In this document: positions 12,535 through 61,537 of the stretch, piece after piece
Layout: every line of letters starts with the position of its first letter
Numbering within the stretch: the stretch's first letter is position 1
Virus record (IMG/VR): IMGVR_UViG_3300028920_000032
Coordinates: 32,001 to 96,000 of that record
Origin: a virus
Reading direction: 5' to 3' (one strand)
Length of the DNA stretch: 64,000 nt
Position numbers and translations under genes: made by a program
The notes under the pieces: model-generated
Told to the model about the DNA's origin: nothing
Database searches by the model: none
What the model saw: the letters and a program-made list of their open reading frames with translations, nothing else

Positions 12535-15500
12535 CTATTTTTGTTTAACAAGAATTCCATTTCCAAGTGCAAGGTTTTTAATATTCTTTATGTATGACTC
12601 AGTTCTTGAAGATGCAGATTCTATAACTTGTAAATGCCCTTCTAATGCACTTAATTTATTCATTAATCTGTCTACTTCTTTTGCAAATGATTCTTGAATT
12701 GCAACATTTAATGATCTAGCTATAGACAGCTCTTCTTTTTTTTCTCCAAGTTCAGCATTGAATTCACTTTTTTTGCTTATAAGTCTAATAGGTTTAGCAT
12801 CTTCCATTTGTTTCATGAGTTTTGAAAATTGTTTAGCTGCACTACTTGCTTCACCATTAAATCCAACTAATACGGAAGTAATTGCAGCCATATCAACTGC
12901 AAGTTCAGAAAGTCTTGGAATAGTACTTGGTAATCTAGATAGTGATGTAAATAGTTGTGATAATCCTTGTCCAGCTTTTTGTATTGCACTACCTTTATAC
13001 ATACTCTTCATTATGATTAACAATGGTTCTTTGATATCATTAAGATTTTTTGCAACTGTTATTAAATCTGTTTTCCCGAGAATATATAATCCTATTGCTA
13101 ATTCACTGAAGCCTTGGCCCAAAGCAACTAATATTTTAGGATCCATTGAATACATACCCTCTTGTGCTTTAAGCATTTCAGATAAGAATTTTCCAATACC
13201 CTCAGCTGATTTTGACATAGTTCCGCTTAAACTTTCTAGTTGGTCAGCAGATTGTTGCAATACATATATACCAATTGCTAAAGCTTGAAATCCTTCACCC
13301 GTTCTTTGAATATTTTCAAACCAGCCTGTATGTGCTTTTAATGCTTCTAATAGTCCACTTACAAAATTAACAATTGGAATAAATCTTGAACCAGAAAAAG
13401 ACTCAATCATTCTAGTAAGATCTTCACTTGCTAATGTTTTTATACCTTCTGCTAATGCTTTAAACCCTTCTCCTGCATTTTTCATATTACCAATAAATGG
13501 CCCAACACTTATTGCTTCAATAGCTTTTTTAAGACCATCAAAACTAGCAGAGATTGCAGATGTTCTTTGAACTTCACTAAGAGTTTTTACAGCTTCTGAC
13601 AATATATAAAAACCTATTGCTAGATCTGTTAAATTTTGAGAAAACAATTTGAATTTACTTTTGTCTTTTACTGCACTTAACATTTCATTAATTGCTTCTC
13701 CAAATTCTTGAAGTGGTTTAATTAGTCCCACAAATTTAGTTTTTATTGTATCAGCAATTTCAGCAAAGAAAGCTAATCCTTTCCCCATTTCCATTATGTT
13801 GTCTGCTATTAACATAAATCCTAAACCAATTGCCGCTATTGCAATTCCTAAAACCAATAAAACACCTGCCATTGCTGCCATTCCTGCTAGTGCAATTGCA
13901 CCTACTGGTGTCATAAAGAAATAGCCTAATGCAACTAATCCTGCAACAAATATTGCAAGTATTGCAGCTGCTATTAATATTTGTTGCCATGGTTGTGAAG
14001 CTAAAAATCCAATACCAGTTGCAATTAAAAATATAGCAGCTCCTACTGCTAACATTACTAAAGCAGCACCAGCCATTTGTAGAAACATTTTTAAACCTGC
14101 GCCTACAGATTGAGTAAATGTTCCCATACCAGCAGCTGCTCCTCCGGCTACATTTCCCACGTTTGCAATTTTACTTGCTAAATTTCCAAGAAATCCAAGA
14201 ATTGGAGGTCCCAATTTCCATACAACTAAGAAAGCAATTATATATGGCACTGCTTTTTGTAAGAAGCTTATAACATTGCCAATTCCTTCACCTACGCTTT
14301 TGAAAAAATTGATTATCTTTTCTGGAGTCAAATTTCTAAAAAATTCCTGAAAACCTCTTGTTGCATTATCAAAAAATGCATCTATTGAATCAGCATTCTT
14401 TAGCCACCATTCGTTTAGCATTTCTAATATATCTGTTATAAATCCAATTATACCAGCAAGACGTTTCCCAAAGAATGCTCCTATCGTATTCATTAGTCTT
14501 TCTAGAGATCCTGACATAGTGGCCATACCTTCAGCAGCCTGCTTTTCAAAAGCTGCTTCACCACTGTCAATCTTTGCAAGCTGTTCACGTCCTTTTTTTG
14601 CTAATCTTAATGCTTCTTGCGCATTATTAAATCCCATCTGTTGAGCTCTAACATTTGCTGCGACGATATTTCCACCTTGTTCAAGAATTCTATTTATTTC
14701 ATCAGCGGCAGTAATCAACCCCTCTGTTAATTTTCGTAGATCAACAGGACCTCCACGTAACATGTCAAGATATTCATGCATATTCATTCCCATCTTCGCG
14801 ACTAATAATGCATTTTCTCCGATTCGTGATGCATCAAATAATTTTTCCATTATTTCATTAGCTCTTCCAGCTGTAAGTCCTAATGCTCCAAACATACCTG
14901 TTAATTTTGCAGTAGCCTCTGTCATGGCTACTATGTCTTGTTCGGCTGCGCCGAATGCTGACATTAGAAGAGTTAATTTACTGACTGTACCAATCATTGC
15001 ACTCATTTCTTGTTCAGTTAATCCAACTGCATCTTGGACTTTAGAAAATGTTCTTAATATACCGCCTGCTCCAACAATTAGTTCTTTACTAACTCCTCCC
15101 ATAACTCTTAGTCTAGCTATCATATCTGTTAATTGTTCTTGGTTGGCACCTAATGCTTTAGCTCCTAAGATTGCATATTTACTCAATTGCTTTAAATCAT
15201 CAAATGGTACTCTCTGTTGAGCTAAAGAAATATATTGGTCTTTTACTGTTTTAATACTTGCAGTAGTTTCAAATGCGACTTCATTTATATCAGACAATGC
15301 TTTAGCCACACGAGTGCCCATACTTTCTGCTTTACCCTCAGCACTTGCAAAACTGCTACTCATCATAGAAAACATGCGCACTAAATCTTTCTGCACGTCA
15401 AACACCATTTCTTTTATGTTCTTCCAGATAGATGCAAATATACCTATTATAGGTATAGCAGCTGCACCAAAAGCATCTTTCATTCTTGCAGCAGTCGTTT

Positions 15501-37450: not shown

Positions 37451-37957
37451 TTACTCCTTTTTAGCTATTAATGCAAAATAATTTCTTATTCCTTGTTCTT
37501 GCTGATGTATAAATTTAAAATCACCTTTATATAAATATCTATAATCACTTATAGGAGATTTTCCAACTTGTTTATATGAATCTTGATCTAAGAAAATTAG
37601 GGTCCCTCGATTAATTACTCTTGTATGTCCAGGATCTCCCCATGCCCACTCTGAATCATGTTTTGGTACTGAAAAACAAAATATACCATTGGGTTTTAAT
37701 ATTCTCCAATACTCTTCAAATTCTTCAAAGAAGTTAATATAATCACCTTGTTTACCTAAATGTTCTAAAACTTCATAGCAATGTAATTCGTCAAAATAAT
37801 TATCATCAAACGGTAATGGTCTAACATTAAGATCCCAAACAATATCTGGACTATGATCTTTATTAATATCTAGTGTTATCAATTTATTCCATTTATGATT
37901 ATCATCTATTGCTAATTGTTTTATGCGACTACTGCCACACCCCATCAATAATTCCAT
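37451..37957 (-). CDS. SAM-dependent methyltransferase (type 11-like)
   Basis: LMGCG, LPFDDNYFDE, EVLEHL, WRILKPNG, WGDPGH. Confidence 0.85.
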   Translation of the reverse strand: MELLMGCGSSRIKQLAIDDNHKWNKLITLDINKDHSPDIVWDLNVRPLPFDDNYFDELHCYEVLEHLGKQGDYINFFEEFEEYWRILKPNGIFCFSVPKHDSEWAWGDPGHTRVINRGTLIFLDQDSYKQVGKSPISDYRYLYKGDFKFIHQQEQGIRNYFALIAKKE

Positions 37958-38649
37958 TAACTTACCACCAATTTCTCATGGCCTACGACACAACGAGGGT
38001 CGGCGTATATTTTAAATCCGGCCATTCTAATTCTAGAACAAAATGCAACATCTTCCCCAGCTGCATATTCTTTTCCATTTATGTTGGCAGCAGCGTTTAC
38101 AAACCATGGCTTTTCTAATTTTTCTACAACACCTTTCTTTATTAACATAAATCCCATACCTGCATGGAAGCATTCTATTAAATCTTTACCACGATTTAAT
38201 GTTTGGGGTATGTTAGCCCAAGTTAGTTTTGCTGGTGTTGCATCATCACTATTTTCTTCTTTTTCAATAAAGCAAAATGTTGATCCATCTTTTCTATAAC
38301 ATCCAGTGACAACGTCACAACTTCTTTGTTCACAATCTTCTAAAAGTAATTCGAATGCTTTTGGCCAAAATATGATGTCTGAATCAATCCACATTATATA
38401 ATCATAATCAACTTTGCCATCAAACGGTTTGTCTGTAGTTTTTATCATATTTTCAACTGATGCTGCACCTAAACATTTTTCTCGGACTATGAAAACATTT
38501 GAGCCACCATGACGAGAAACAGTCATATTAATATTATTTTCTCTGCAGTATCCAGTAAGTCTAACCCAACTGTCAAAAAATTTTCCTGAAAATCCTCCAG
38601 TAGGGCCAGGTAAGCAAAATACTATATTAAGCTCTTTCTTCTTTTTCAT
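37957..38649 (-). CDS. GT-A fold glycosyltransferase
   Basis: YDYIMWIDSD (DxD), GMGFMLIKKGV, GEDVAFC, GHEK. Confidence 0.85.
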   Translation of the reverse strand: MKKKKELNIVFCLPGPTGGFSGKFFDSWVRLTGYCRENNINMTVSRHGGSNVFIVREKCLGAASVENMIKTTDKPFDGKVDYDYIMWIDSDIIFWPKAFELLLEDCEQRSCDVVTGCYRKDGSTFCFIEKEENSDDATPAKLTWANIPQTLNRGKDLIECFHAGMGFMLIKKGVVEKLEKPWFVNAAANINGKEYAAGEDVAFCSRIRMAGFKIYADPRCVVGHEKLVVS

Positions 38650-42120: not shown

Positions 42121-43059
42121 CTATGCTTTAATACTGTCTTTTATAAGATTAAATTCAGTGAACCATTTACTTTTTTTTACTGCGTTGAAAGCTTTTTTAT
42201 TTTTATCTATTTTAAATATTTTAAGCATTGCGATTTTAAACCATTCTCTACCATAATCAGTTTTTAATTGCTCTAAGCACTGGTGAGCAATAGTATATCT
42301 TGCACCACTTTCTTTAGCTAACAACATACTGCGCTCATAGTTTTCTTTTATTTCTAAATCTTTTGTTACGTCAATGTTCCATTTAGTTGATATTATATTT
42401 TGGTAAGTATCAGCCCACTGCTCTATGAGCCTTTCGGCAAATTTTAATTTATCTCTTTTCTTTTGATAGTATGCAACAGCAGAGATCCAATACAAATTTT
42501 TATACTCAATATCATATTTAACGCACCAATATTTGAAATAAGTAGTATGTATAAATATATCACTAGGAAATATATTAATCATATCATTATTTCTCATATA
42601 GACAACTAGCGACATTTTATTGTCGTGTTCTACTATTGGTTGCATTATAATAGTACAAGGTTGTCTACCTTTTAAACTATAATCGCTTTTCTTCCATACT
42701 TGAATTATTTTGTCTCTACTATGTATCTTTTTCGACAAAGCTTCTTTCATTTGCCCATTTAAACGATTAGCATAATGGTAAGAATATAAACCAGAATCTT
42801 CAATTCTGTTTTCCCAATTTTTACTAAAATAATATGATAAACCTGGATTAGTCACACTAAATATTCTATCAGAACACTCACGTAATATCCATGGCCAATT
42901 ACGCTGTGCAAATGGGAAAAATAGAATATTTTTGTTCATATCTGTTAATGTAAATGTTAAGAAAGGAAGCTCTCTTCTTTTTGCTTTTATTTGACCTGTA
43001 TCTTTTATATCATGCAAAATATCTAGATATGCATCATTAATGTCTTTATATTCATCCAT
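42121..43059 (-). CDS. Divergent thymidylate-synthase-fold enzyme 2 (dCMP-type Asp, C-terminal extension)
   Basis: RQPCT catalytic Cys, YMRNNDMINIFPSD; lacks the SLHxY motif. Confidence 0.75.
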   Translation of the reverse strand: MDEYKDINDAYLDILHDIKDTGQIKAKRRELPFLTFTLTDMNKNILFFPFAQRNWPWILRECSDRIFSVTNPGLSYYFSKNWENRIEDSGLYSYHYANRLNGQMKEALSKKIHSRDKIIQVWKKSDYSLKGRQPCTIIMQPIVEHDNKMSLVVYMRNNDMINIFPSDIFIHTTYFKYWCVKYDIEYKNLYWISAVAYYQKKRDKLKFAERLIEQWADTYQNIISTKWNIDVTKDLEIKENYERSMLLAKESGARYTIAHQCLEQLKTDYGREWFKIAMLKIFKIDKNKKAFNAVKKSKWFTEFNLIKDSIKA

Positions 43060-43152
43060 ATTAAAAATTATGCGGAAAACTAAGAAAACTCCGGGGGAAA
43101 TATAGTTTTAACTGTTTTATGTGTTAAATTCATAATATTGTCTTATTTTCTA

Positions 43153-43165
43153 AAGATAATTAAAA
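43153..43165 (+). promoter_or_regulatory. Putative late promoter AAGATAATTAAAA
   Basis: Exact motif upstream of the SD and ATG of 43185. Confidence 0.65.
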
Positions 43166-43184
43166 TAGAAACTAGAGGATTGTT

Positions 43185-43565
43185 ATGAAACTATTTGAAG
43201 CAATGAATTTACATGAAAGAAATGTTCATGATATAGCTAAAGAATACAATGGTTTGCGAAAGAGAGTTGAATTACAGCTTAAAGGCAAAAAAGATGGTGA
43301 AAAACTTAAAGCTGCTATTAGTGGTTGGGTTGGTGGAATGGAAGGCCTAAAAAGTGTTCGCCAGCTAATCGGAATGTTACAAAAAAATCCTGCGTTTAAA
43401 AATGATGCTGTCGACAAAGCTATAATTAAAATTATAAACGAACTCATTAGGGAAAGTAGTGATGAGAGATCAGAAGTAGCTAAAAAACAACAAGCGTCTA
43501 CTAAAAGACAAGAAAAAATGCAAACTGTTATCCCACCAGGAACAACTTTGTCAACAGGTGTTTAA
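43185..43565 (+). CDS. Putative head-internal protein (MKLFEAMNLHE) in reverse orientation
   Basis: GAGGA SD, late motif, MKxxE N-terminus. Confidence 0.65.
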   Translation: MKLFEAMNLHERNVHDIAKEYNGLRKRVELQLKGKKDGEKLKAAISGWVGGMEGLKSVRQLIGMLQKNPAFKNDAVDKAIIKIINELIRESSDERSEVAKKQQASTKRQEKMQTVIPPGTTLSTGV

Positions 43566-43908
43566 ACCAGCTAATTATAAACAATTTATATAATTGTGTG
43601 AGATAACAAAAGTAATATTCTACAGTTAATTTAAAATCACAAGAATTTAATTCACCAACTTTTACATAAGCATAAGCAGCAGATTTTAGAAAGCAATCTA
43701 AGCCGGCTTTATGAAATCTCTTTCTTACTGCTTTATCAAAGTTTTCAAACATTAATTCTTCAAATTTTTTTTCTGATCTTTTTTCTAAACGCCATAAAAA
43801 ACCTGCAATAACTCTCTTGAAGTAAAAAATAAAACTACATTCATCATTCATAAGTATTTTGAATGTTGCTCTTATCCCTAATATTTTATTACCTTCAATA
43901 TCTGTCAT
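43528..43908 (-). CDS. Hypothetical protein
   Basis: ORF with AAGGT SD; convergent overlap with 43185-43565. Confidence 0.5.
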   Translation of the reverse strand: MTDIEGNKILGIRATFKILMNDECSFIFYFKRVIAGFLWRLEKRSEKKFEELMFENFDKAVRKRFHKAGLDCFLKSAAYAYVKVGELNSCDFKLTVEYYFCYLTQLYKLFIISWFKHLLTKLFLVG

Positions 43909-43925
43909 AACATACCTTTCTATAT

Positions 43926-44660
43926 TTAGAATACAAAATCAGGAAAGTCTTTTGCATATGCATGTAATGAACCGCCAAAATAAGTAAAACTACCAATTTT
44001 ATAATTTAATTCATTGGCTATATATTCTTGAATTTTACATGCTAGCCAAATATCAACAACAAAATGAATAAGTAAATCATTGGATCTCATTACATATATA
44101 CCATGTACTTTATTGTTTCTTACTAAGAATTGATAATGCATTGAACATGGAATTCTTCTCTTTCCACCAATGTTTTGGTGATCTTTTGAATAATTAAAAA
44201 TTTGCACAATACCTTGTCTTGAATCTGGTGACTCTTTAAGCTCTTCAATTACTTTTGTAATTTGATCTTTTATTAGAGCAGGATCACTAATTCTTTCTGA
44301 ATAAGTATATGAAAATTTTTGTTCATCTTCTAAAAATTGCTCCCACAATGAATATCTAGATTTGTGAGCATCACCAGGGTTTTTAGATTGACCACACAAA
44401 CGATCTTGTAACTCAAGTTTACAATATTCGATAATAGCTTGGCACTCTTCAGGATAAAAGATTTTTACCATTTCATCTAATTTAGCATCTGCTTGTGAAA
44501 CTTTATATGAATAACCAATTAGTTCTTTTGTATAAAAATCTTTATTCCCTTTTACCCATTTGTCTTGCATGTGTGAAATTGGGACAGTAATACCAAGTTC
44601 TTTTAATTCCCGCCTTAATTCATTAGCAGCTTGTTCATGATCTGAAAATATTCTACTCAT
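43926..44660 (-). CDS. Thymidylate-synthase-fold enzyme 1, probable dCMP hydroxymethylase/methylase/hydroxylase
   Basis: DSRQ, RIPCSMHYQF, MRSNDLLIHFVVD (Asp at the N177-equivalent position), GSLHAY. Confidence 0.8.
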   Translation of the reverse strand: MSRIFSDHEQAANELRRELKELGITVPISHMQDKWVKGNKDFYTKELIGYSYKVSQADAKLDEMVKIFYPEECQAIIEYCKLELQDRLCGQSKNPGDAHKSRYSLWEQFLEDEQKFSYTYSERISDPALIKDQITKVIEELKESPDSRQGIVQIFNYSKDHQNIGGKRRIPCSMHYQFLVRNNKVHGIYVMRSNDLLIHFVVDIWLACKIQEYIANELNYKIGSFTYFGGSLHAYAKDFPDFVF

Positions 44661-44883
44661 ATTCAATCTCCTCATTTTTATTTATGCTATTAATTACTAT
44701 ATCCATACCTTTTTGCCAAGCTTTGTCAATTATTTCTTGTTTTTCTTTTTCAGCTTTGCTTAAGTTGTCAATTGGCATATATTTTTGGTTTGCTAAACAA
44801 TTAAGCAGATGCTCTAAAAAATCTGCTTCAATTATTAAATGTTTACCACTAAGAAGTCCTTTAGTTATTTCTTTATTGCCCAT
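44653..44883 (-). CDS. Hypothetical protein
   Basis: ORF in operon. Confidence 0.55.
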   Translation of the reverse strand: MGNKEITKGLLSGKHLIIEADFLEHLLNCLANQKYMPIDNLSKAEKEKQEIIDKAWQKGMDIVINSINKNEEIEYE

Positions 44884-45389
44884 AACTTCTTAAACAATTT
44901 TAAAAATTCTTGTTCAGCTTCTTGTGGATTATAACAATCTAAATGTTTAGTTTGATAGTCTGTTGGTGCAAAGTGTTGATCAAAAAGATTATAATATTCT
45001 ATATTTAGCCATCTAACATCTGCTTCTTTAATTTGTTTGTGTATTGCGTCATTTAATTCCAGATTAAATTTTTCTAAAATAACACATTCAATTTTATTTT
45101 CGAATGGTTTAATTTTTTCAAAAACATGATGTTTTAATGGAGAAGGAATGTCTGTCATATATGTTTCTGTAGCATCATGTAACAATGCTAATAATTGTAT
45201 GTTTGAATCTACAAATTCTTTAGAAACATTTATAGAATGCTCAGCGACACTATAAAATCTTTTTGTGTGGCCACACCACCTACACTGAAATGCTAATGAA
45301 TGAGCAATGTCTTCTATACAAACATCTTCAGAATTCATGTTATCATAATGGAATATTTTTCCTGTATAAGTTTGTATCCAATTTAACAT
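44865..45389 (-). CDS. HD-domain 5'-deoxynucleotidase (YfdR/YfbR-like)
   Basis: IEDIAHSLA.QCRW.GH...YSVAEHS...ALLHDATE.YMTDIPSPLK. Confidence 0.92.
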   Translation of the reverse strand: MLNWIQTYTGKIFHYDNMNSEDVCIEDIAHSLAFQCRWCGHTKRFYSVAEHSINVSKEFVDSNIQLLALLHDATETYMTDIPSPLKHHVFEKIKPFENKIECVILEKFNLELNDAIHKQIKEADVRWLNIEYYNLFDQHFAPTDYQTKHLDCYNPQEAEQEFLKLFKKLWAIKK

Positions 45390-45399
45390 TTTTACTCCT

Positions 45400-45975
45400 T
45401 TAATATTGTAATCTTAAAGCTTCTGAAACTTTATTCATTATATATTTGTCATCACGAAAAGCTACTAATCTAACTACTGGGAATACAGTATGTTTTAAGA
45501 AAGACTCATAAAGATTATATTGTTTGCGATATCCGTCTTCACCACTATTGTCTTCTAACCAATCTTTCTTTCTGTCCATCTCTGCCATCTTTTTAAATCC
45601 GCTATCAAGTATAGTCATAAACAAAATAACTATCTTTTGATTTGTTCTGTAATATAATTCTTCTATTTTCTTTAAGTGCTCAAGCCAATATTTATGATCA
45701 TAATTATTACGATAATAAAGACCATATACACATGAGCTTATATATTGTCTATCAACAACAAGTGAGTTAGTTATATGCTTTGGTAAAGTTGGGAAATATT
45801 GTGCATAAGCTAAATCACGACCGACTGAATAGTCGTCGACATTAATATCAGGATATGAGCGATGTGTTATTCTCATACCTAAATCTTTATAGATTTGAAT
45901 ATCAGGAAAAAATTCTTTTATTTTATCACAAGTGTAGCTTTTACCGCACCTTCTGACTCCATCTATATGTATCAT
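45400..45975 (-). CDS. dNMP (thymidylate-like) kinase
   Basis: IDGVRRCGKS P-loop, VVDRQYISSCVY. Confidence 0.82.
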   Translation of the reverse strand: MIHIDGVRRCGKSYTCDKIKEFFPDIQIYKDLGMRITHRSYPDINVDDYSVGRDLAYAQYFPTLPKHITNSLVVDRQYISSCVYGLYYRNNYDHKYWLEHLKKIEELYYRTNQKIVILFMTILDSGFKKMAEMDRKKDWLEDNSGEDGYRKQYNLYESFLKHTVFPVVRLVAFRDDKYIMNKVSEALRLQY

Positions 45976-46277
45976 AAATCTTCTTCTCCTAATTTAATAG
46001 ACCCAGGTGGATTACCTTTAAAACGTTTAGCTGTTTCAAAAATAATAATATTTAAATCTTTTTTAGTTTTATAATCACAATTAGTTAAAGCAACTGTTTC
46101 ATTTTTTGAAGTAGTCTTATCTGGGTTTTCAAAAGTAATTATGTAGTAATATCCTTTAAGAAAAGTAAGATCATTTTTGCTAAATTCTTCATTGATTACT
46201 TGAGCTATGCGATCATTTAAGTGTTTGGCAAATCTTTGCATGTCTTTTGCAATATAATCATGCTTATCCATCTTCAT
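45972..46277 (-). CDS. Hypothetical protein
   Basis: ORF in operon. Confidence 0.55.
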   Translation of the reverse strand: MKMDKHDYIAKDMQRFAKHLNDRIAQVINEEFSKNDLTFLKGYYYIITFENPDKTTSKNETVALTNCDYKTKKDLNIIIFETAKRFKGNPPGSIKLGEEDL

Positions 46278-46521
46278 CTCTTAAATCCTTTTTCACTGTT
46301 TCACGAATTAAAATGTCTACTGCTTCTTTTGGTAAAGAAATTGTTACAATTGGATTGTTAGCCAAACAATCAGTTACTGAAAATTTCCATCCATCATTAA
46401 TTTTCCAAAATCTATATATTCTCTTGGCTATTAAATAGCCAGTTTTATCATGATCTTTCTCAATAACTTCCCACATCTTATTTTCAGAAACAGTAAATTC
46501 TGTATTATCTATTTTTGACAT
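46264..46521 (-). CDS. Hypothetical protein
   Basis: ORF in operon. Confidence 0.55.
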   Translation of the reverse strand: MSKIDNTEFTVSENKMWEVIEKDHDKTGYLIAKRIYRFWKINDGWKFSVTDCLANNPIVTISLPKEAVDILIRETVKKDLRDEDG

Positions 46522-46540
46522 AATTTTATTACCTACTATT

Positions 46541-46978
46541 TTATTTTTTCTTTAATGTCCTTGCTATTAGACTCATTACTAATTTTGCTTTATCTGCTGG
46601 TAAATCTTCGATTTCTGTCCATTCTCCATCTTTTAATCTAATCTCTTCCCCAATAGTACCAGATCCTACTTTAATTTCAAATATGTCTCCATATTCTTTT
46701 CTCAATCTTCTTCTCATTTCCCAAACTGATTCACTATCACTTTTAATTTTTAATAACTCATCAAATACAATATCAAAACTTATATCATTGCTATATCCTG
46801 CTCTCTTTTTTGCGCTTCTTAACCAATCTTGCCTTTTGTATTCAGACTCTCTTAATTTTTTCAATTCTTTTTTCATTTCCGCTATTTCTTTATGAAAAGG
46901 ACAAACTATTGATTGTTTCTTTTTAGAGATTACTTCACTATCTGAACTTAAAGCAAAATCTACTTTGTTATCGTTCAT
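46541..46978 (-). CDS. Hypothetical protein
   Basis: ORF in operon. Confidence 0.55.
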   Translation of the reverse strand: MNDNKVDFALSSDSEVISKKKQSIVCPFHKEIAEMKKELKKLRESEYKRQDWLRSAKKRAGYSNDISFDIVFDELLKIKSDSESVWEMRRRLRKEYGDIFEIKVGSGTIGEEIRLKDGEWTEIEDLPADKAKLVMSLIARTLKKK

Positions 46979-46987
46979 TGTTATATT

Positions 46988-47623
46988 TTAATACCCCGTG
47001 TCTATCCTAAATTTATTACATTGATTTTTTCTACTAAAGACACTCCATAAATCATCTGGAGATAAACCAATACCCCTAAATATAAGATTAAAAAATTTGT
47101 AATATACTTGCTCAAATCTTTCTTCAAAGATGAGCATGTCAGTAAGATATTGACTTTTCTTCCATGGTCTTATTTTTAATTTATTGCATGTTATTCCTAT
47201 TTGATATATAATGTCTATTATATATGGATCTAATATTTTCAAATTTGTTACTATAGTTTTGGGGATTGGAGTGTAAACCCAAAGCTCATGTAAAGATTTA
47301 AATTTGTGGAAATCCCATCCATATAAAATATAAGAACTAATTAAAAAATTGAGCGAATCACTAATTTCTTCATATATATGTTCAATTCTCTCACCTTCTA
47401 TTATAGCTTCTCTCATTTCCATAAGCTCTTCAACAACACGAATTTCTAAAAAATCTTTCATAGCTTGTTGACCTTCAAATGTGTCAATATCAACTGGTAA
47501 ATCTAAATCTTTTATTGAGACTTCAAACTTTTTATAATAGCTGACTAAAGCTTTCATTTTTTCAAATATTGCAGCCGTTACATCTCCATGATATTTTTCA
47601 GCTTGGTAATCTAATATGTTCAT
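46988..47623 (-). CDS. All-alpha (dimeric dUTPase/MazG-like) dNTP pyrophosphatase, possible dCTPase
   Basis: EELME...EEISD, RPWKK, KNQCNKFRIDTGY. Confidence 0.8.
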   Translation of the reverse strand: MNILDYQAEKYHGDVTAAIFEKMKALVSYYKKFEVSIKDLDLPVDIDTFEGQQAMKDFLEIRVVEELMEMREAIIEGERIEHIYEEISDSLNFLISSYILYGWDFHKFKSLHELWVYTPIPKTIVTNLKILDPYIIDIIYQIGITCNKLKIRPWKKSQYLTDMLIFEERFEQVYYKFFNLIFRGIGLSPDDLWSVFSRKNQCNKFRIDTGY

Positions 47624-59677: not shown

Positions 59678-59890
59678 TCAATCATCTCCTTTCTTTAAAC
59701 TAAATGCATTTTTTATTGCAATTCTTGGGTGCCAACTTTTCTTACATGAAATAGTATCTTTGGCACAAAATTGACATAAATCAAAACTGAAGAATTTATC
59801 GCCACGTAATAAAGCTTTAGATTCTTCTCTTTTTCTTATTTTTTTGATTCTTGTTAGTACTACCAAAACCACCTTCATTTCTATAGTCAT
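59678..59890 (-). CDS. Small Cys-rich protein (KREESKALLR...CQFC); start uncertain
   Basis: Motif family member overlapping the dUTPase 3' end. Confidence 0.45.
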   Translation of the reverse strand: MTIEMKVVLVVLTRIKKIRKREESKALLRGDKFFSFDLCQFCAKDTISCKKSWHPRIAIKNAFSLKKGDD

Positions 59891-60377
59891 CTTGTTTCAT
59901 CCAATCATATAACTGTTCTTCATCAACTAATATTGGTTCACAACTTAATACTGGAATTAAAACTAATTGTACAATCTTCATTCCAGGCTTAATTAAAAAT
60001 TCTTCATCACTAACATTATGCATATCGATATGAATTTCACCACTATAAAATGTGTCAATTACTTGTGCACCTACTAGCAATTCGTTTTTAGATGCAACTC
60101 CTGATTTATTTAAGAATAAAGCCATGTAACCATATGGAACTTCAATTTTAATACCAGAAGGTATACATATATTTGAATTCGGATAAAGCACTATATACGA
60201 TTCATCACTATATGGATCATTACTCCAACTTAATGTATGGCGATCATCGTTTTTCTTTTTTAAGTCTTCAATAAATTTTTCAGTAAAGCCGGGAACAAAG
60301 AAATCTAATCCAGCATCAGTCGCATGTCCTCTTGATGGTTTTTTCACATTTCTTACTAATGAATATTTTAATAACAT
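59817..60377 (-). CDS. dut: Trimeric dUTPase
   Basis: DAGLDF, PSGIKIEVP.GY, KSGVA, VIDTFYSGEI, RNEGGFGST. Confidence 0.93.
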   Translation of the reverse strand: MLLKYSLVRNVKKPSRGHATDAGLDFFVPGFTEKFIEDLKKKNDDRHTLSWSNDPYSDESYIVLYPNSNICIPSGIKIEVPYGYMALFLNKSGVASKNELLVGAQVIDTFYSGEIHIDMHNVSDEEFLIKPGMKIVQLVLIPVLSCEPILVDEEQLYDWMKQDDYRNEGGFGSTNKNQKNKKKRRI

Positions 60378-60740: not shown

Positions 60741-60983
60741 TTATTTTCTTTCAGTAAGATCAATTTGGTAACTTTTTCTTTTAGTTTTTTTATTCTTGTC
60801 ATTCTCAATATATGTTATGCTAGAAATTAAAATGGGTACATTTAAATCATTATTATTTAAAGTATTTGAATAACTAACAACTTTTACACTATTCTCTTTT
60901 ATCCAACTGTTTATTATTTCATCAGATTTTTTAATAGAAGATTTACTCTCAAAAACAAAATTTTTTACTAATATCATTTTCAC
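60741..60983 (-). CDS. Hypothetical protein
   Basis: ORF with GGGAGG SD. Confidence 0.55.
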   Translation of the reverse strand: MKMILVKNFVFESKSSIKKSDEIINSWIKENSVKVVSYSNTLNNNDLNVPILISSITYIENDKNKKTKRKSYQIDLTERK

Positions 60984-61537
60984 CTCCCAGCAATATTTAA
61001 GCTTGCTAAAAACTTGTTGTTTACATCAATTTGCTTCACTGTTATATTATTATCTTTTAATATCTCTATTGCTTTATATCCCTCTTCTCGATCATATAAT
61101 GTATGATAATATACATGTTTTATTCCAGCGTGTATGACAGACTTTACGCAAAATAAACATGGAGAATATGTTGTATATATGCTTCCACCTTCTACTGAAA
61201 TTCCTTTTCTAGCACAATAAATTATTGCATTCATCTCAGCATGTAATTCATGTTCAATTGCCCAAGTGTGATGAACTTCTTTAAACGACCAATGATCTAA
61301 ATATTTTTTAAATGTTGGAAACAAACTATTTCTGGTTTCTTGTGGAATTTCTTTATATTGTTTAAGAAAGTGGTCATAACAATGTTCTTTGCCAGGAGCA
61401 TTTCCATTATAGCCAGTAGATACTGCTCGATTATCAACGGAGATTACAGCACCAGCTTTTACACGAGCACATGTAGATCTCTGCGCAAACAATAAAGCTG
61501 TTTGCATCAAAATTTCATGTATGCTTAGACGTTTCAT
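60980..61537 (-). CDS. dCMP deaminase
   Basis: RSTC.R.K.GAVI, TGYNG, HAEMNAI, SPCLFC. Confidence 0.95.
   Translation of the reverse strand: MKRLSIHEILMQTALLFAQRSTCARVKAGAVISVDNRAVSTGYNGNAPGKEHCYDHFLKQYKEIPQETRNSLFPTFKKYLDHWSFKEVHHTWAIEHELHAEMNAIIYCARKGISVEGGSIYTTYSPCLFCVKSVIHAGIKHVYYHTLYDREEGYKAIEILKDNNITVKQIDVNNKFLASLNIAGR

Follow-up and report, generated by a model that had tools for sequence, protein, structure and literature searches.

The product of an enzyme of the thymidylate synthase (TS) superfamily is now read from three residues (Escherichia coli numbering), position 177 for the base, 143 for methyl versus hydroxymethyl and 169 for the hydroxyl, and it is by these rules that modifications of phage DNA are predicted in metagenomic data. 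Asn177 to Asp changes the specificity from deoxyuridylate (dUMP) to deoxycytidylate (dCMP), enzymes that form methyl products have a hydrophobic Leu143 and those that form hydroxymethyl products an Asp or Glu at this position, and Asp169 to Asn is the mark of the flavin-dependent 5-hydroxy-dCMP synthases (PMC13326640). In the dCMP hydroxymethylase of phage T4, gp42, it is Asp145, three residues before the catalytic cysteine (Cys-3), that activates the substrate water, and the D145N variant forms no 5-hydroxymethyl-dCMP (PMC6400193). MilA, the cytidylate (CMP) 5-hydroxymethylase of mildiomycin, consists of a TS core and an additional C-terminal domain of five helices, remote from the active site, and this ribose-preferring enzyme carries Ala176 and Lys133 at the positions of Ser167 and Arg126 (PMC5175136). 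Here we compare with these systems two TS-fold genes in a 64,000-nucleotide stretch of phage DNA (the window, bases 32001-96000 of the IMG/VR record IMGVR_UViG_3300028920_000032, which is 158,329 bp long, ~70% complete and ~30% G+C). The minus strand carries nearly all genes of this record, and a search of the whole record found exactly two with the ThyA fold, TS1 (43926-44660, minus strand, 244 amino acids) and TS2 (42121-43059, minus strand, 312 amino acids). Both have the Pro-Cys and the Asp eight residues after RxxD that an earlier note on this DNA had described.

Our comparison leads us to view TS1 and TS2 as enzymes that clearly resemble cytosine C5 one-carbon transferases in their residues, yet fail a defining residue of every characterised subgroup. 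We put at roughly 0.5 the probability that the cluster around them encodes a T4-type pathway for replacing cytosine before replication, built from non-T4 parts, in which TS2 adds a second product.

The reference sequences for the alignment, taken from annotated records, were E. coli ThyA, T4 gp42, RB69 gp48, Xp12 TS and SPO1 gp29. At positions 58, 94, 126, 127, 143, 146, 147, 166, 167, 169, 177, 207 and 209, ThyA has Glu, Tyr, Arg, Arg, Leu, Cys, His, Arg, Ser, Asp, Asn, His and Tyr. T4 gp42 differs from it by Asp143, Thr147 and Asp177, SPO1 gp29 by Gln127, Asp143 and Asn147, Xp12 by Asn143, Pro147 and Asp177, and RB69 gp48 by Phe58, Glu143, Thr147, Asn169, Asp177 and Phe209. The differences of TS1 are Gln127, Arg143, Ser147 and Asp177, and those of TS2 are Asp127, Arg143, Thr147, Asn167, Asp177 and Tyr207. 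In both proteins the second Asp aligns with ThyA Asn177 and T4 Asp179, and the Pro-Cys aligns with Cys146. Both keep the residues of the ThyA fold (Cys146, Glu58, Tyr94 and Arg166) and superpose on ThyA structures with Z ~20, and both likewise have the Asp179, Cys148 and Glu60 of gp42-type enzymes. The uracil-specifying Asn177 is replaced by an Asp that is invariant in both families. As had been supposed earlier, both proteins look like active, cytosine-specific C5 enzymes, and with ThyX, dCMP deaminase and a deoxyuridine triphosphatase (dUTPase) in the genome they are not required for thymidylate (dTMP). With Asp177, and with Glu58 and Asp169 kept, TS1 and TS2 look like cytosine-type, folate-type enzymes.

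Other residues set the two proteins apart from every reference. Neither has Leu143 or the C-terminal tail with which ThyA closes its site for hydride transfer: TS1 ends shortly after His207/Tyr209, and TS2 has a MilA-type helical domain in the place of the tail. The Asp or Glu that gp42-type enzymes have at Cys-3 is an invariant Arg in TS1 (R169) and TS2 (R132), and position 169, Asn in the 5-hydroxy-dCMP synthases, is Asp in both. They share Asp177 with Xp12, but the Xp12 tail is absent and they form clades separate from ThyA. The core plus five-helix domain of MilA is found in TS2 and not in TS1, and where MilA has Ala176, Lys133 and Asp at Cys-3 (the latter from our alignment and PMC13326640), TS2 has Asn, Arg and Arg. 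Position 167 is Asn in TS2, Thr in the wider TS2 family and Ser in TS1, and Arg126 is present in both enzymes; set against the Ala176 and Lys133 of MilA, these residues favour a deoxy substrate for TS2, and both enzymes look deoxy-type by such residues. Arg127 is lost in both (Gln in TS1, Asp or Glu in TS2), and the TS2 pocket is the more basic one, with Arg143, Arg or Lys at 83, KKR after Tyr209 and Asp or Glu at 127. Since Arg143 matches the residue of no proven hydroxymethylase, hydroxylase or methyl-former, the product is not readable from the existing signatures.

The maximum-likelihood tree is in line with this. It recovers a monophyletic TS1 family, a TS2 clade and a wider TS2-like family (Shimodaira-Hasegawa-like approximate likelihood ratio test, SH-aLRT, 99, 100 and 98, respectively), none of which groups with any reference enzyme; TS1 and TS2 fall outside the ThyA and Xp12 groupings and TS1 outside that of gp42, and the deeper branching has no resolution.

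TS1 matches the Pfam family Thymidylat_synt with E 2.8e-18, above the curated cut-off, and both TS1 and TS2 match phage 'thymidylate synthase' PHROGs. The family consensus begins at the Met of the 43926-44660 open reading frame (ORF) and not at an upstream ATG at 44675, and the protein carries the motifs RIPC, MRSND-LLIHFVV-D and GGSLHAY. Its best sequence match in the PDB is to the 5-hydroxy-dCMP synthases (E 2.4e-11), and an AlphaFold model made from the family alignment (predicted local distance difference test, pLDDT, 95.4; predicted template modelling score, pTM, 0.92) finds its best fold matches, about equal, in the MilA core, AfhB and T4 dCMP hydroxymethylase. The equivalents of the Cys, Glu58, Tyr94, Arg166, Asp169 and Asp177 are invariant or nearly so in 42 TS1 homologues (38-81% identity) and also in 25 TS2 homologues (52-82% identity), in which the catalytic residues are the best-conserved columns of the family, and these are hence selected active sites and no chance motifs. 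IMG/VR holds 360 TS1-type relatives, and cultured Clostridium perfringens phages carry TS1-type genes at 39% identity; a literature search found no report on DNA modification in C. perfringens phages with such genes. In one of these, phage CPD4, the TS1-type gene likewise encodes Arg at Cys-3 and Asp177, and it follows genes for a P-loop protein and a nucleoside triphosphate (NTP) pyrophosphatase of the dUTPase_2 family and precedes DNA polymerase I. The TS1-type gene of a 105-kb phage (G014, IMGVR_UViG_3300033141_003544; L121:6421-8367, minus strand) is a frame of 648 amino acids with an insert of ~400, which starts with Cys right after ...KKRIP, has a LAGLIDADG-like LVGYFLADG and ends in ...VHN before the catalytic Cys (CSTGYMF). 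Judged by these features, the insert is an intein lying exactly at the active-site cysteine, which marks this site as conserved and important.

TS2 matches the same Pfam family at E 1.9e-6, its 27.7 bits exceeding the cut-off of 24.3, and carries the motifs RQPC and MRNND-MINIFPS-D. Where TS1 and all reference enzymes have SLHxY it has AYYQKKRD, and it extends for ~100 further residues at the C terminus. Both features had been pointed out in the earlier note and stand, but the extension is not new: on the model it is the helical domain of the MilA type. The AlphaFold model, again from the family alignment (pLDDT 89.2; pTM 0.89), matches MilA with a Foldseek template modelling (TM) score of 0.76-0.77, and VIA-align superposes it on MilA 5jnh_A with Z 31.0, a root mean square deviation of 2.5 A over 295 of its 312 residues, those of the C-terminal helical domain included; AfhB (Z 23.5) and the ThyA enzymes (Z ~20.8) score lower. 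This link is invisible by sequence, as the identity is ~15% and TS2 and its profile give just weak ThyA matches in the PDB. TS2 is a member of another family than TS1, which agrees with the earlier note. We found 51 close homologues and a wider 'YYQKKR' family. Searching 1.8 billion representatives with a profile of the TS2 alignment gave 884 proteins at E <= 1e-3 and just 15 at E <= 1e-30; the TS2-like proteins (~290-325 amino acids) share R-x-P-C-T, M-R-[TSN]-N-D, P-[YS]-D and Y-Y-Q-K-K-R, and more distant extended proteins retain S-L-H-x-Y and an Asp at Cys-3, as in MilA and SPO1. No match to the TS2-type gene was found in 50,697 GenBank phage genomes. In the ESM Atlas, a viral cluster of 444-residue proteins fuses a ThyA-fold domain, which resembles TS2 in structure over residues 1-309, to a dCMP deaminase domain.

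The co-occurrence of the two families is asymmetric. Counted on whole IMG/VR records, since the flanks of the loci were limited, a full-length TS1-type gene is present in 13 of the 14 records that bear TS2, and in 5/5 of those that are at least 90% complete (the one record without it is 63% complete and is the twin of another in which both genes are present), while none of 20 records selected for TS1 has a TS2-type gene, 11 of these 20 being at least 90% complete. The asymmetry is significant (Fisher's exact p = 1.5e-8) and about the same after near-identical records are collapsed. The paired phages are 31-158 kb in size and have little else in common, their TS1 partners are scattered across the TS1 tree, and the two genes lie 1-20 kb apart (8-20 kb in records G004, G005, G007 and G008). 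From this asymmetry we conclude that TS1-type enzymes are self-sufficient and that TS2-type enzymes are add-ons to TS1-type systems, with few possible exceptions. The functional link that had been proposed between the two enzymes of the window is strengthened by these counts, and we infer that TS1 has the primary role and that TS2 is an accessory dependent on it.

The surrounding genes would fit a nucleotide-level pathway. In transcription order the cluster begins with an all-alpha NTP pyrophosphatase of the dimeric-dUTPase/MazG-like kind (46988-47623, minus strand), followed by three small ORFs, a P-loop, thymidylate-kinase-like protein (45400-45975, minus strand; Walker A motif GVRRCGKS), an HD-domain 5'-deoxynucleotidase, that is, a deoxynucleoside monophosphate (dNMP) phosphatase (44865-45389, minus strand), an ORF of 76 codons, TS1, an ORF of 126 codons (43528-43908, minus strand) and TS2. 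A trimeric dUTPase (59817-60377, minus strand; PF00692, E 2.2e-15) and a dCMP deaminase (60980-61537, minus strand; PF00383, E 3.7e-21; phrog_174, E 1.5e-47) lie elsewhere in the window, and ThyX is encoded beyond it (genome positions 143765-144307; PF02511, E 4.2e-48). With these three present, the supply of dTMP is independent of TS1 and TS2.

The pyrophosphatase matches PF08761 (dUTPase_2) with 25.5 bits against a cut-off of 22.9 and phrog_12184 with E 3e-11; its sole pairwise similarity to T4 gp56 is the C-terminal ...R.D.GY end motif. Because a canonical trimeric dUTPase is present, the all-alpha enzyme probably has another substrate, and it may be a dCTPase that clears deoxycytidine triphosphate (dCTP) and feeds dCMP. 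Homologues of it adjoin TS1- or TS2-type genes in loci L012-L016 and L022, in records G001, G012 and G014 and in phage CPD4. The kinase-like protein has weak matches (phrog_761, E 4.6e-4; Pfam TMPK, E 0.17), has only the P-loop in common with T4 gp1 and is 25% identical over 87 amino acids to the 'thymidylate kinase' RB69 ORF045. Homologues that are 34-42% identical are found in the same modules of relatives, and the kinases that stand beside TS2-type genes in L012 and L014 match PF02223 at ~5e-6; by a weak assignment of this kind, 45400-45975 may encode a dNMP kinase for modified dCMP. Searches of the PDB with the kinase and pyrophosphatase sequences gave no useful match. The HD phosphatase is better defined (phrog_318, E 1.4e-52; Pfam YfbR-like, E 6e-5, just below the cut-off; PDB matches 2gz4 and YfbR), but it has no homologue in the relatives' modules and hence is not a conserved part of the module. 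The ORF of 126 codons at 43528-43908 has no Pfam or PHROG match and no homologue in the relatives' loci. In the 470-bp gap between it and TS2, a plus-strand ORF, also of 126 codons (43185-43565), lies in an otherwise minus-strand region and would encode a charged, helical-looking product with no family match, and GC and AT skew are ~0 across 42-44 kb against about -0.2 elsewhere.

Enzymes that might decorate a modified cytosine were also looked for. No GT1 glycosyltransferase, carbamoyltransferase, C5 DNA methylase or MilB-like glycosidase was found in the 158 kb, a result that is not firm in a record that is ~70% complete, and a search for T4 beta-glucosyltransferase came out empty for the control as well and is thus uninformative. 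A GT2-like gene (37957-38649, minus strand; phrog_1574) lies ~3.5 kb downstream and overlaps by 1 base with a small S-adenosylmethionine (SAM) methyltransferase gene (37451-37957). The GT2-like protein has counterparts with 35-38% identity in 105 cyanophage records (S-TIM5, P-SSM2, S-SCSM1 and others), and we rejected this pair as evidence of DNA decoration because the family is common to cyanophages that are not known to carry hydroxymethylcytosine. A MilB-like N-glycosidase as a partner for TS2 was likewise rejected, as PF15891 and PF05014 are absent here and a PF15891 gene is found in the relatives L020 and L022 only.

In relatives, the module is recognisable in several arrangements. In the distant phages L012 and L014 the TS2-type gene lies between an NTP pyrophosphatase of the dUTPase_2 family and a TMPK-like kinase, with genes for ThyX, dCMP deaminase and a C5 DNA methyltransferase nearby. 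A TS1-type gene without TS2 stands beside pyrophosphatase and kinase genes in L016 and in the cultured phage CPD4, the C. perfringens phages Clo-PEP-1 and P21 having the same module, and in L017 it adjoins genes for a dCMP deaminase and a dNK-like kinase, the pyrophosphatase match being weak and partial. Within the clade of the window's phage, and with presence and absence in L005, L016, L020 and L021 assessed within ±10 kb, TS1 and TS2 occur together in the window, L007/L011 and L022, TS2 without TS1 in L005, L020 and L021, and TS1 without TS2 in L016. The pyrophosphatase tracks TS1 in seven loci, both being present in the window, L022, G001 and L016 and neither in L005, L020 and L021, and the presence of TS2 does not depend on either. 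L020 is syntenic with L022 and has neither TS1 nor the pyrophosphatase in their slots, so that TS2 may be able to function in the absence of TS1 and with dCTP left in place.

Several further observations concern other genes of the relatives. An RtcB RNA ligase gene is directly downstream of TS2 in L005 (11179-13470), L020 (10984-12258) and L022 (10952-12226) and not in the window; the RtcB of L005 contains an intein (763 amino acids, Intein_splicing plus RtcB). A short way upstream of the CCA-adding enzyme, L020 (2347-2763 and 3183-3599) and L022 (244-663 and 1134-1553) have a PF15891 gene (MilB superfamily, nucleoside 2-deoxyribosyltransferase-like) and a NUDIX gene, both of which are missing from this genome. 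In G008, a complete 69-kb phage, a CTP_transf_3 cytidylyltransferase gene of the CMP-sugar synthetase type (E 4.5e-43; L119:14588-15310, minus strand) is immediately upstream of the TS2-type gene. In L016 (1444-5328) the two halves of DnaE are adjacent, with the C-terminal half (736 amino acids) upstream of the PHP/N-terminal half (557 amino acids).

On the favoured reading, the all-alpha pyrophosphatase would remove dCTP and yield dCMP, and TS1, whose fold and residues point to such an activity, would add a one-carbon group to C5 of dCMP using methylene-tetrahydrofolate. The TMPK-like kinase would then phosphorylate the TS1 product for use by the phage polymerase, while ThyX, dCMP deaminase and the trimeric dUTPase, all of whose genes are present, would make dTMP separately. 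TS2 would be a second folate-dependent cytosine C5 enzyme that most likely makes a different C5-substituted dCMP in parallel, and the DNA would carry two cytosine derivatives or reflect a condition-dependent choice between them. TS2 keeps Glu58 and Asp169, both of which are lost in the flavin-dependent hydroxylase RB69 gp48 (F58 and N169; PMC13326640), which suggests that TS2 uses folate and acts on a C5 that is still unsubstituted. As TS1 moreover has the same Arg143, these residues make two products more likely than two steps; of the 'two-step or two-product' pathway first envisaged, the second half is thus favoured and the first less likely. As to the kind of product, weak evidence makes us favour a hydroxymethyl-type group, formed by capture of water or another nucleophile, over methyl: neither protein has the C-terminal tail, and neither this genome nor any of 28 related records has a dihydrofolate reductase (DHFR) gene of the sort that Xp12 has beside its TS, so that methyl formation is weakly disfavoured. 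As a marker against methyl formation, the absence of DHFR is weak evidence only.

A number of observations weigh against this reading. The cluster's kinase and dCTPase are weakly assigned, and a DNA glycosyltransferase or another enzyme for decorating the base could not be recognised in a record that is just ~70% complete. At Cys-3 the two proteins have Arg, at odds with the signature of hydroxymethylases (Asp in T4 gp42, SPO1 gp29 and MilA), and this speaks against gp42-like water activation. L005, L020 and L021 have TS2 with no TS1 within 10 kb, and L020 has no pyrophosphatase either. Moreover, genes for C5 cytosine DNA methyltransferases, which would be pointless if every cytosine C5 were already substituted, lie beside TS1-type or TS2-type/kinase genes in distant phages (L119:4681-5658, minus strand; L012:12003-13025 and 14375-15397; L014:11917-12891 and 13184-14185). 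These methyltransferases might act on residual cytosine or have an altered activity, and cytosine replacement in those phages may be partial.

Other explanations have to be weighed against a two-product pathway. TS1, TS2 or both could be Xp12-like dCMP methyltransferases, giving 5-methylcytosine DNA or a 5-methyl nucleotide that is deaminated to thymidylate, with the second enzyme as a redundant or alternative isozyme. It is true that the proven dCMP methylase of Xp12 also has no acidic residue at Cys-3 but an Asn, and that TS1-type genes often adjoin dCMP deaminase genes (L017, G007, G008, G012 and G014), a pattern reported for TS homologues that form 5-methyl-dCMP (bioRxiv 10.1101/2024.12.05.627091). 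We nevertheless consider this unlikely, as neither protein has the ThyA/Xp12 tail or groups with Xp12 or ThyA in the tree, 0/29 records have the DHFR that in Xp12 is encoded next to the TS gene, and the phage already has ThyX. A sequential scheme, in which TS1 makes 5-hydroxymethyl-dCMP and TS2, its Cys attacking C6, would expel water from this product to form the exocyclic methylene and then add another nucleophile, giving a hypermodified dCMP at the level of the nucleotide, would agree with the dependence of TS2-type genes on TS1-type genes and not the reverse, and with the remodelled, more basic TS2 pocket. Its chemistry has a precedent, since the T4 dCMP hydroxymethylase reportedly swaps the hydroxyl oxygen of hydroxymethyl-dCMP with water (Butler, Graves and Hardy 1994), so that dehydration would be reversible in this fold. 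What makes the scheme decidedly unlikely is that TS2 retains Glu58 and Asp169, which activate folate and are missing from the hydroxylase that works without it (PMC13326640), that the odd Arg143 is shared with TS1 and so is not specific to a second step, and that TS2 stands without a nearby TS1 in L005, L020 and L021.

The same three loci also count against a heterodimer in which TS2 would be a specificity or regulatory subunit of TS1. TS enzymes function only as dimers, each active site being completed by Arg126 and Arg127 of the partner chain, and the shared fold, the sheet-to-sheet dimer interface that is the rule in this family (PMC5175136), the loss of Arg127 in both proteins and the asymmetric co-occurrence could all be read in this way; yet the catalytic residues of TS2 are the best-conserved columns of its family, unlike those of a pseudo-enzyme, and the genes are 8-20 kb apart in the four records named above, which leaves a heterodimer very unlikely. 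Least probable, in our view, is that TS1 alone serves DNA and that the substrate of TS2 is a ribonucleotide (CMP, the substrate of MilA) or some other cytosine compound, destined for RNA, a small molecule or another end outside DNA. The full MilA architecture of TS2, the RtcB genes directly after it and the MilB-like PF15891 and NUDIX genes nearby in some relatives, and the wealth of RNA-metabolism genes in this phage, including the CCA-adding enzyme, would suit such a role, but the ribose determinants of MilA are replaced (Asn or Thr167 and not Ala, Arg126 and not Lys; PMC5175136), the MilB-like gene is absent from this genome, and in L012 and L014 the TS2-type genes sit between pyrophosphatase and TMPK-like kinase genes. 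We may also speculate, as a long shot, that the enzymes with Arg at Cys-3 are a new product class of the TS superfamily, in which neither water nor hydride but some other nucleophile, such as an anion bound by the Arg, would capture the exocyclic-methylene intermediate, with TS1 and TS2 placing two different, undescribed groups on C5 of dCMP. If this were true, the phage DNA would contain two non-canonical cytosines made before replication.

The findings bear on how TS-superfamily genes are interpreted, since two large phage families with Arg143, one of them (TS2) seen in uncultured phages only, fall outside the rules on positions 177, 143 and 169. If their products differ from 5-methyl-, 5-hydroxymethyl- and 5-hydroxycytosine, they are new natural DNA bases and the enzymes are new tools for modified nucleotides; if the products are 5-hydroxymethyl- or 5-methylcytosine, the signature rules need revising. 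The pairing further raises the question why a phage would need two cytosine-specific TS-fold enzymes. Whether a phage is sensitive to restriction, to CRISPR or to type IV systems is also decided by modified cytosines, so that the matter bears on predictions of phage host range.

Set beside the described systems, the cluster resembles the T4 pathway of dCTPase, dCMP hydroxymethylase and dNMP kinase (gp56, gp42 and gp1), with which it shares an all-alpha NTP pyrophosphatase, an Asp177 ThyA-fold enzyme, a kinase and a separate dTMP supply. The earlier claim that the cluster mirrors these three T4 proteins thus holds for the logic of the pathway and not for membership of the gp42 family, given Arg and not Asp or Glu at Cys-3. 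TS1 resembles gp42 in being short and in keeping Ser167, His207 and Tyr209, but TS1 and TS2 have Arg for the essential Asp145, TS1 has Gln for Arg124 and it lies outside gp42 in the tree. ThyX takes the place of Td, the search for a glucosyltransferase gave none, TS2 is an additional enzyme with the TS fold, and the pyrophosphatase and kinase share with gp56 and gp1 just a C-terminal motif and a P-loop.

The closest match to TS2 is MilA (PDB 5jnh and 5b6d), on which it superposes over its whole length and with which it shares an Asp at the cytosine position and the conserved Cys and Glu; it differs by ~15% identity, Arg at Cys-3, Asn167 and Arg126 and a Tyr for MilA His216, and it is found in a phage nucleotide module and not in an antibiotic gene cluster. 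The 5-hydroxy-dCMP synthases (RB69 gp48, DLP3 gp80 and HY126 AfhB; PDB 9iqc and 9iqu) are, like TS1, short, with a ...H.[YF].[KR]DF C terminus and Asp177, and they too belong to a phage dNMP-level pathway with a TMPK-like kinase nearby, but they have Asn169, no Glu58 and Glu at Cys-3, where TS1 and TS2 have Asp169, Glu58 and Arg (PMC13326640). The dCMP methyltransferase of the Xanthomonas phage Xp12 is similar in Asp177, Asp169, Glu58, a non-acidic Cys-3 residue (Asn) and an adjacent dCMP deaminase gene; unlike TS1 and TS2 it has a ThyA-like C-terminal tail, groups with ThyA and has a DHFR beside it. SPO1 gp29, a dUMP hydroxymethylase, likewise combines a ThyA fold with a long C-terminal extension (383 amino acids), Gln127 and phage base replacement at the dNMP level, but it has the uracil-specific Asn177 and an Asp at Cys-3, and BLAST shows no similarity to the TS2 extension. 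What is known in this locus is therefore the T4-type pathway logic, and what is new are two uncharacterised families with an Arg143 that lies outside the specificity code and a near-obligate pairing between them that runs one way.

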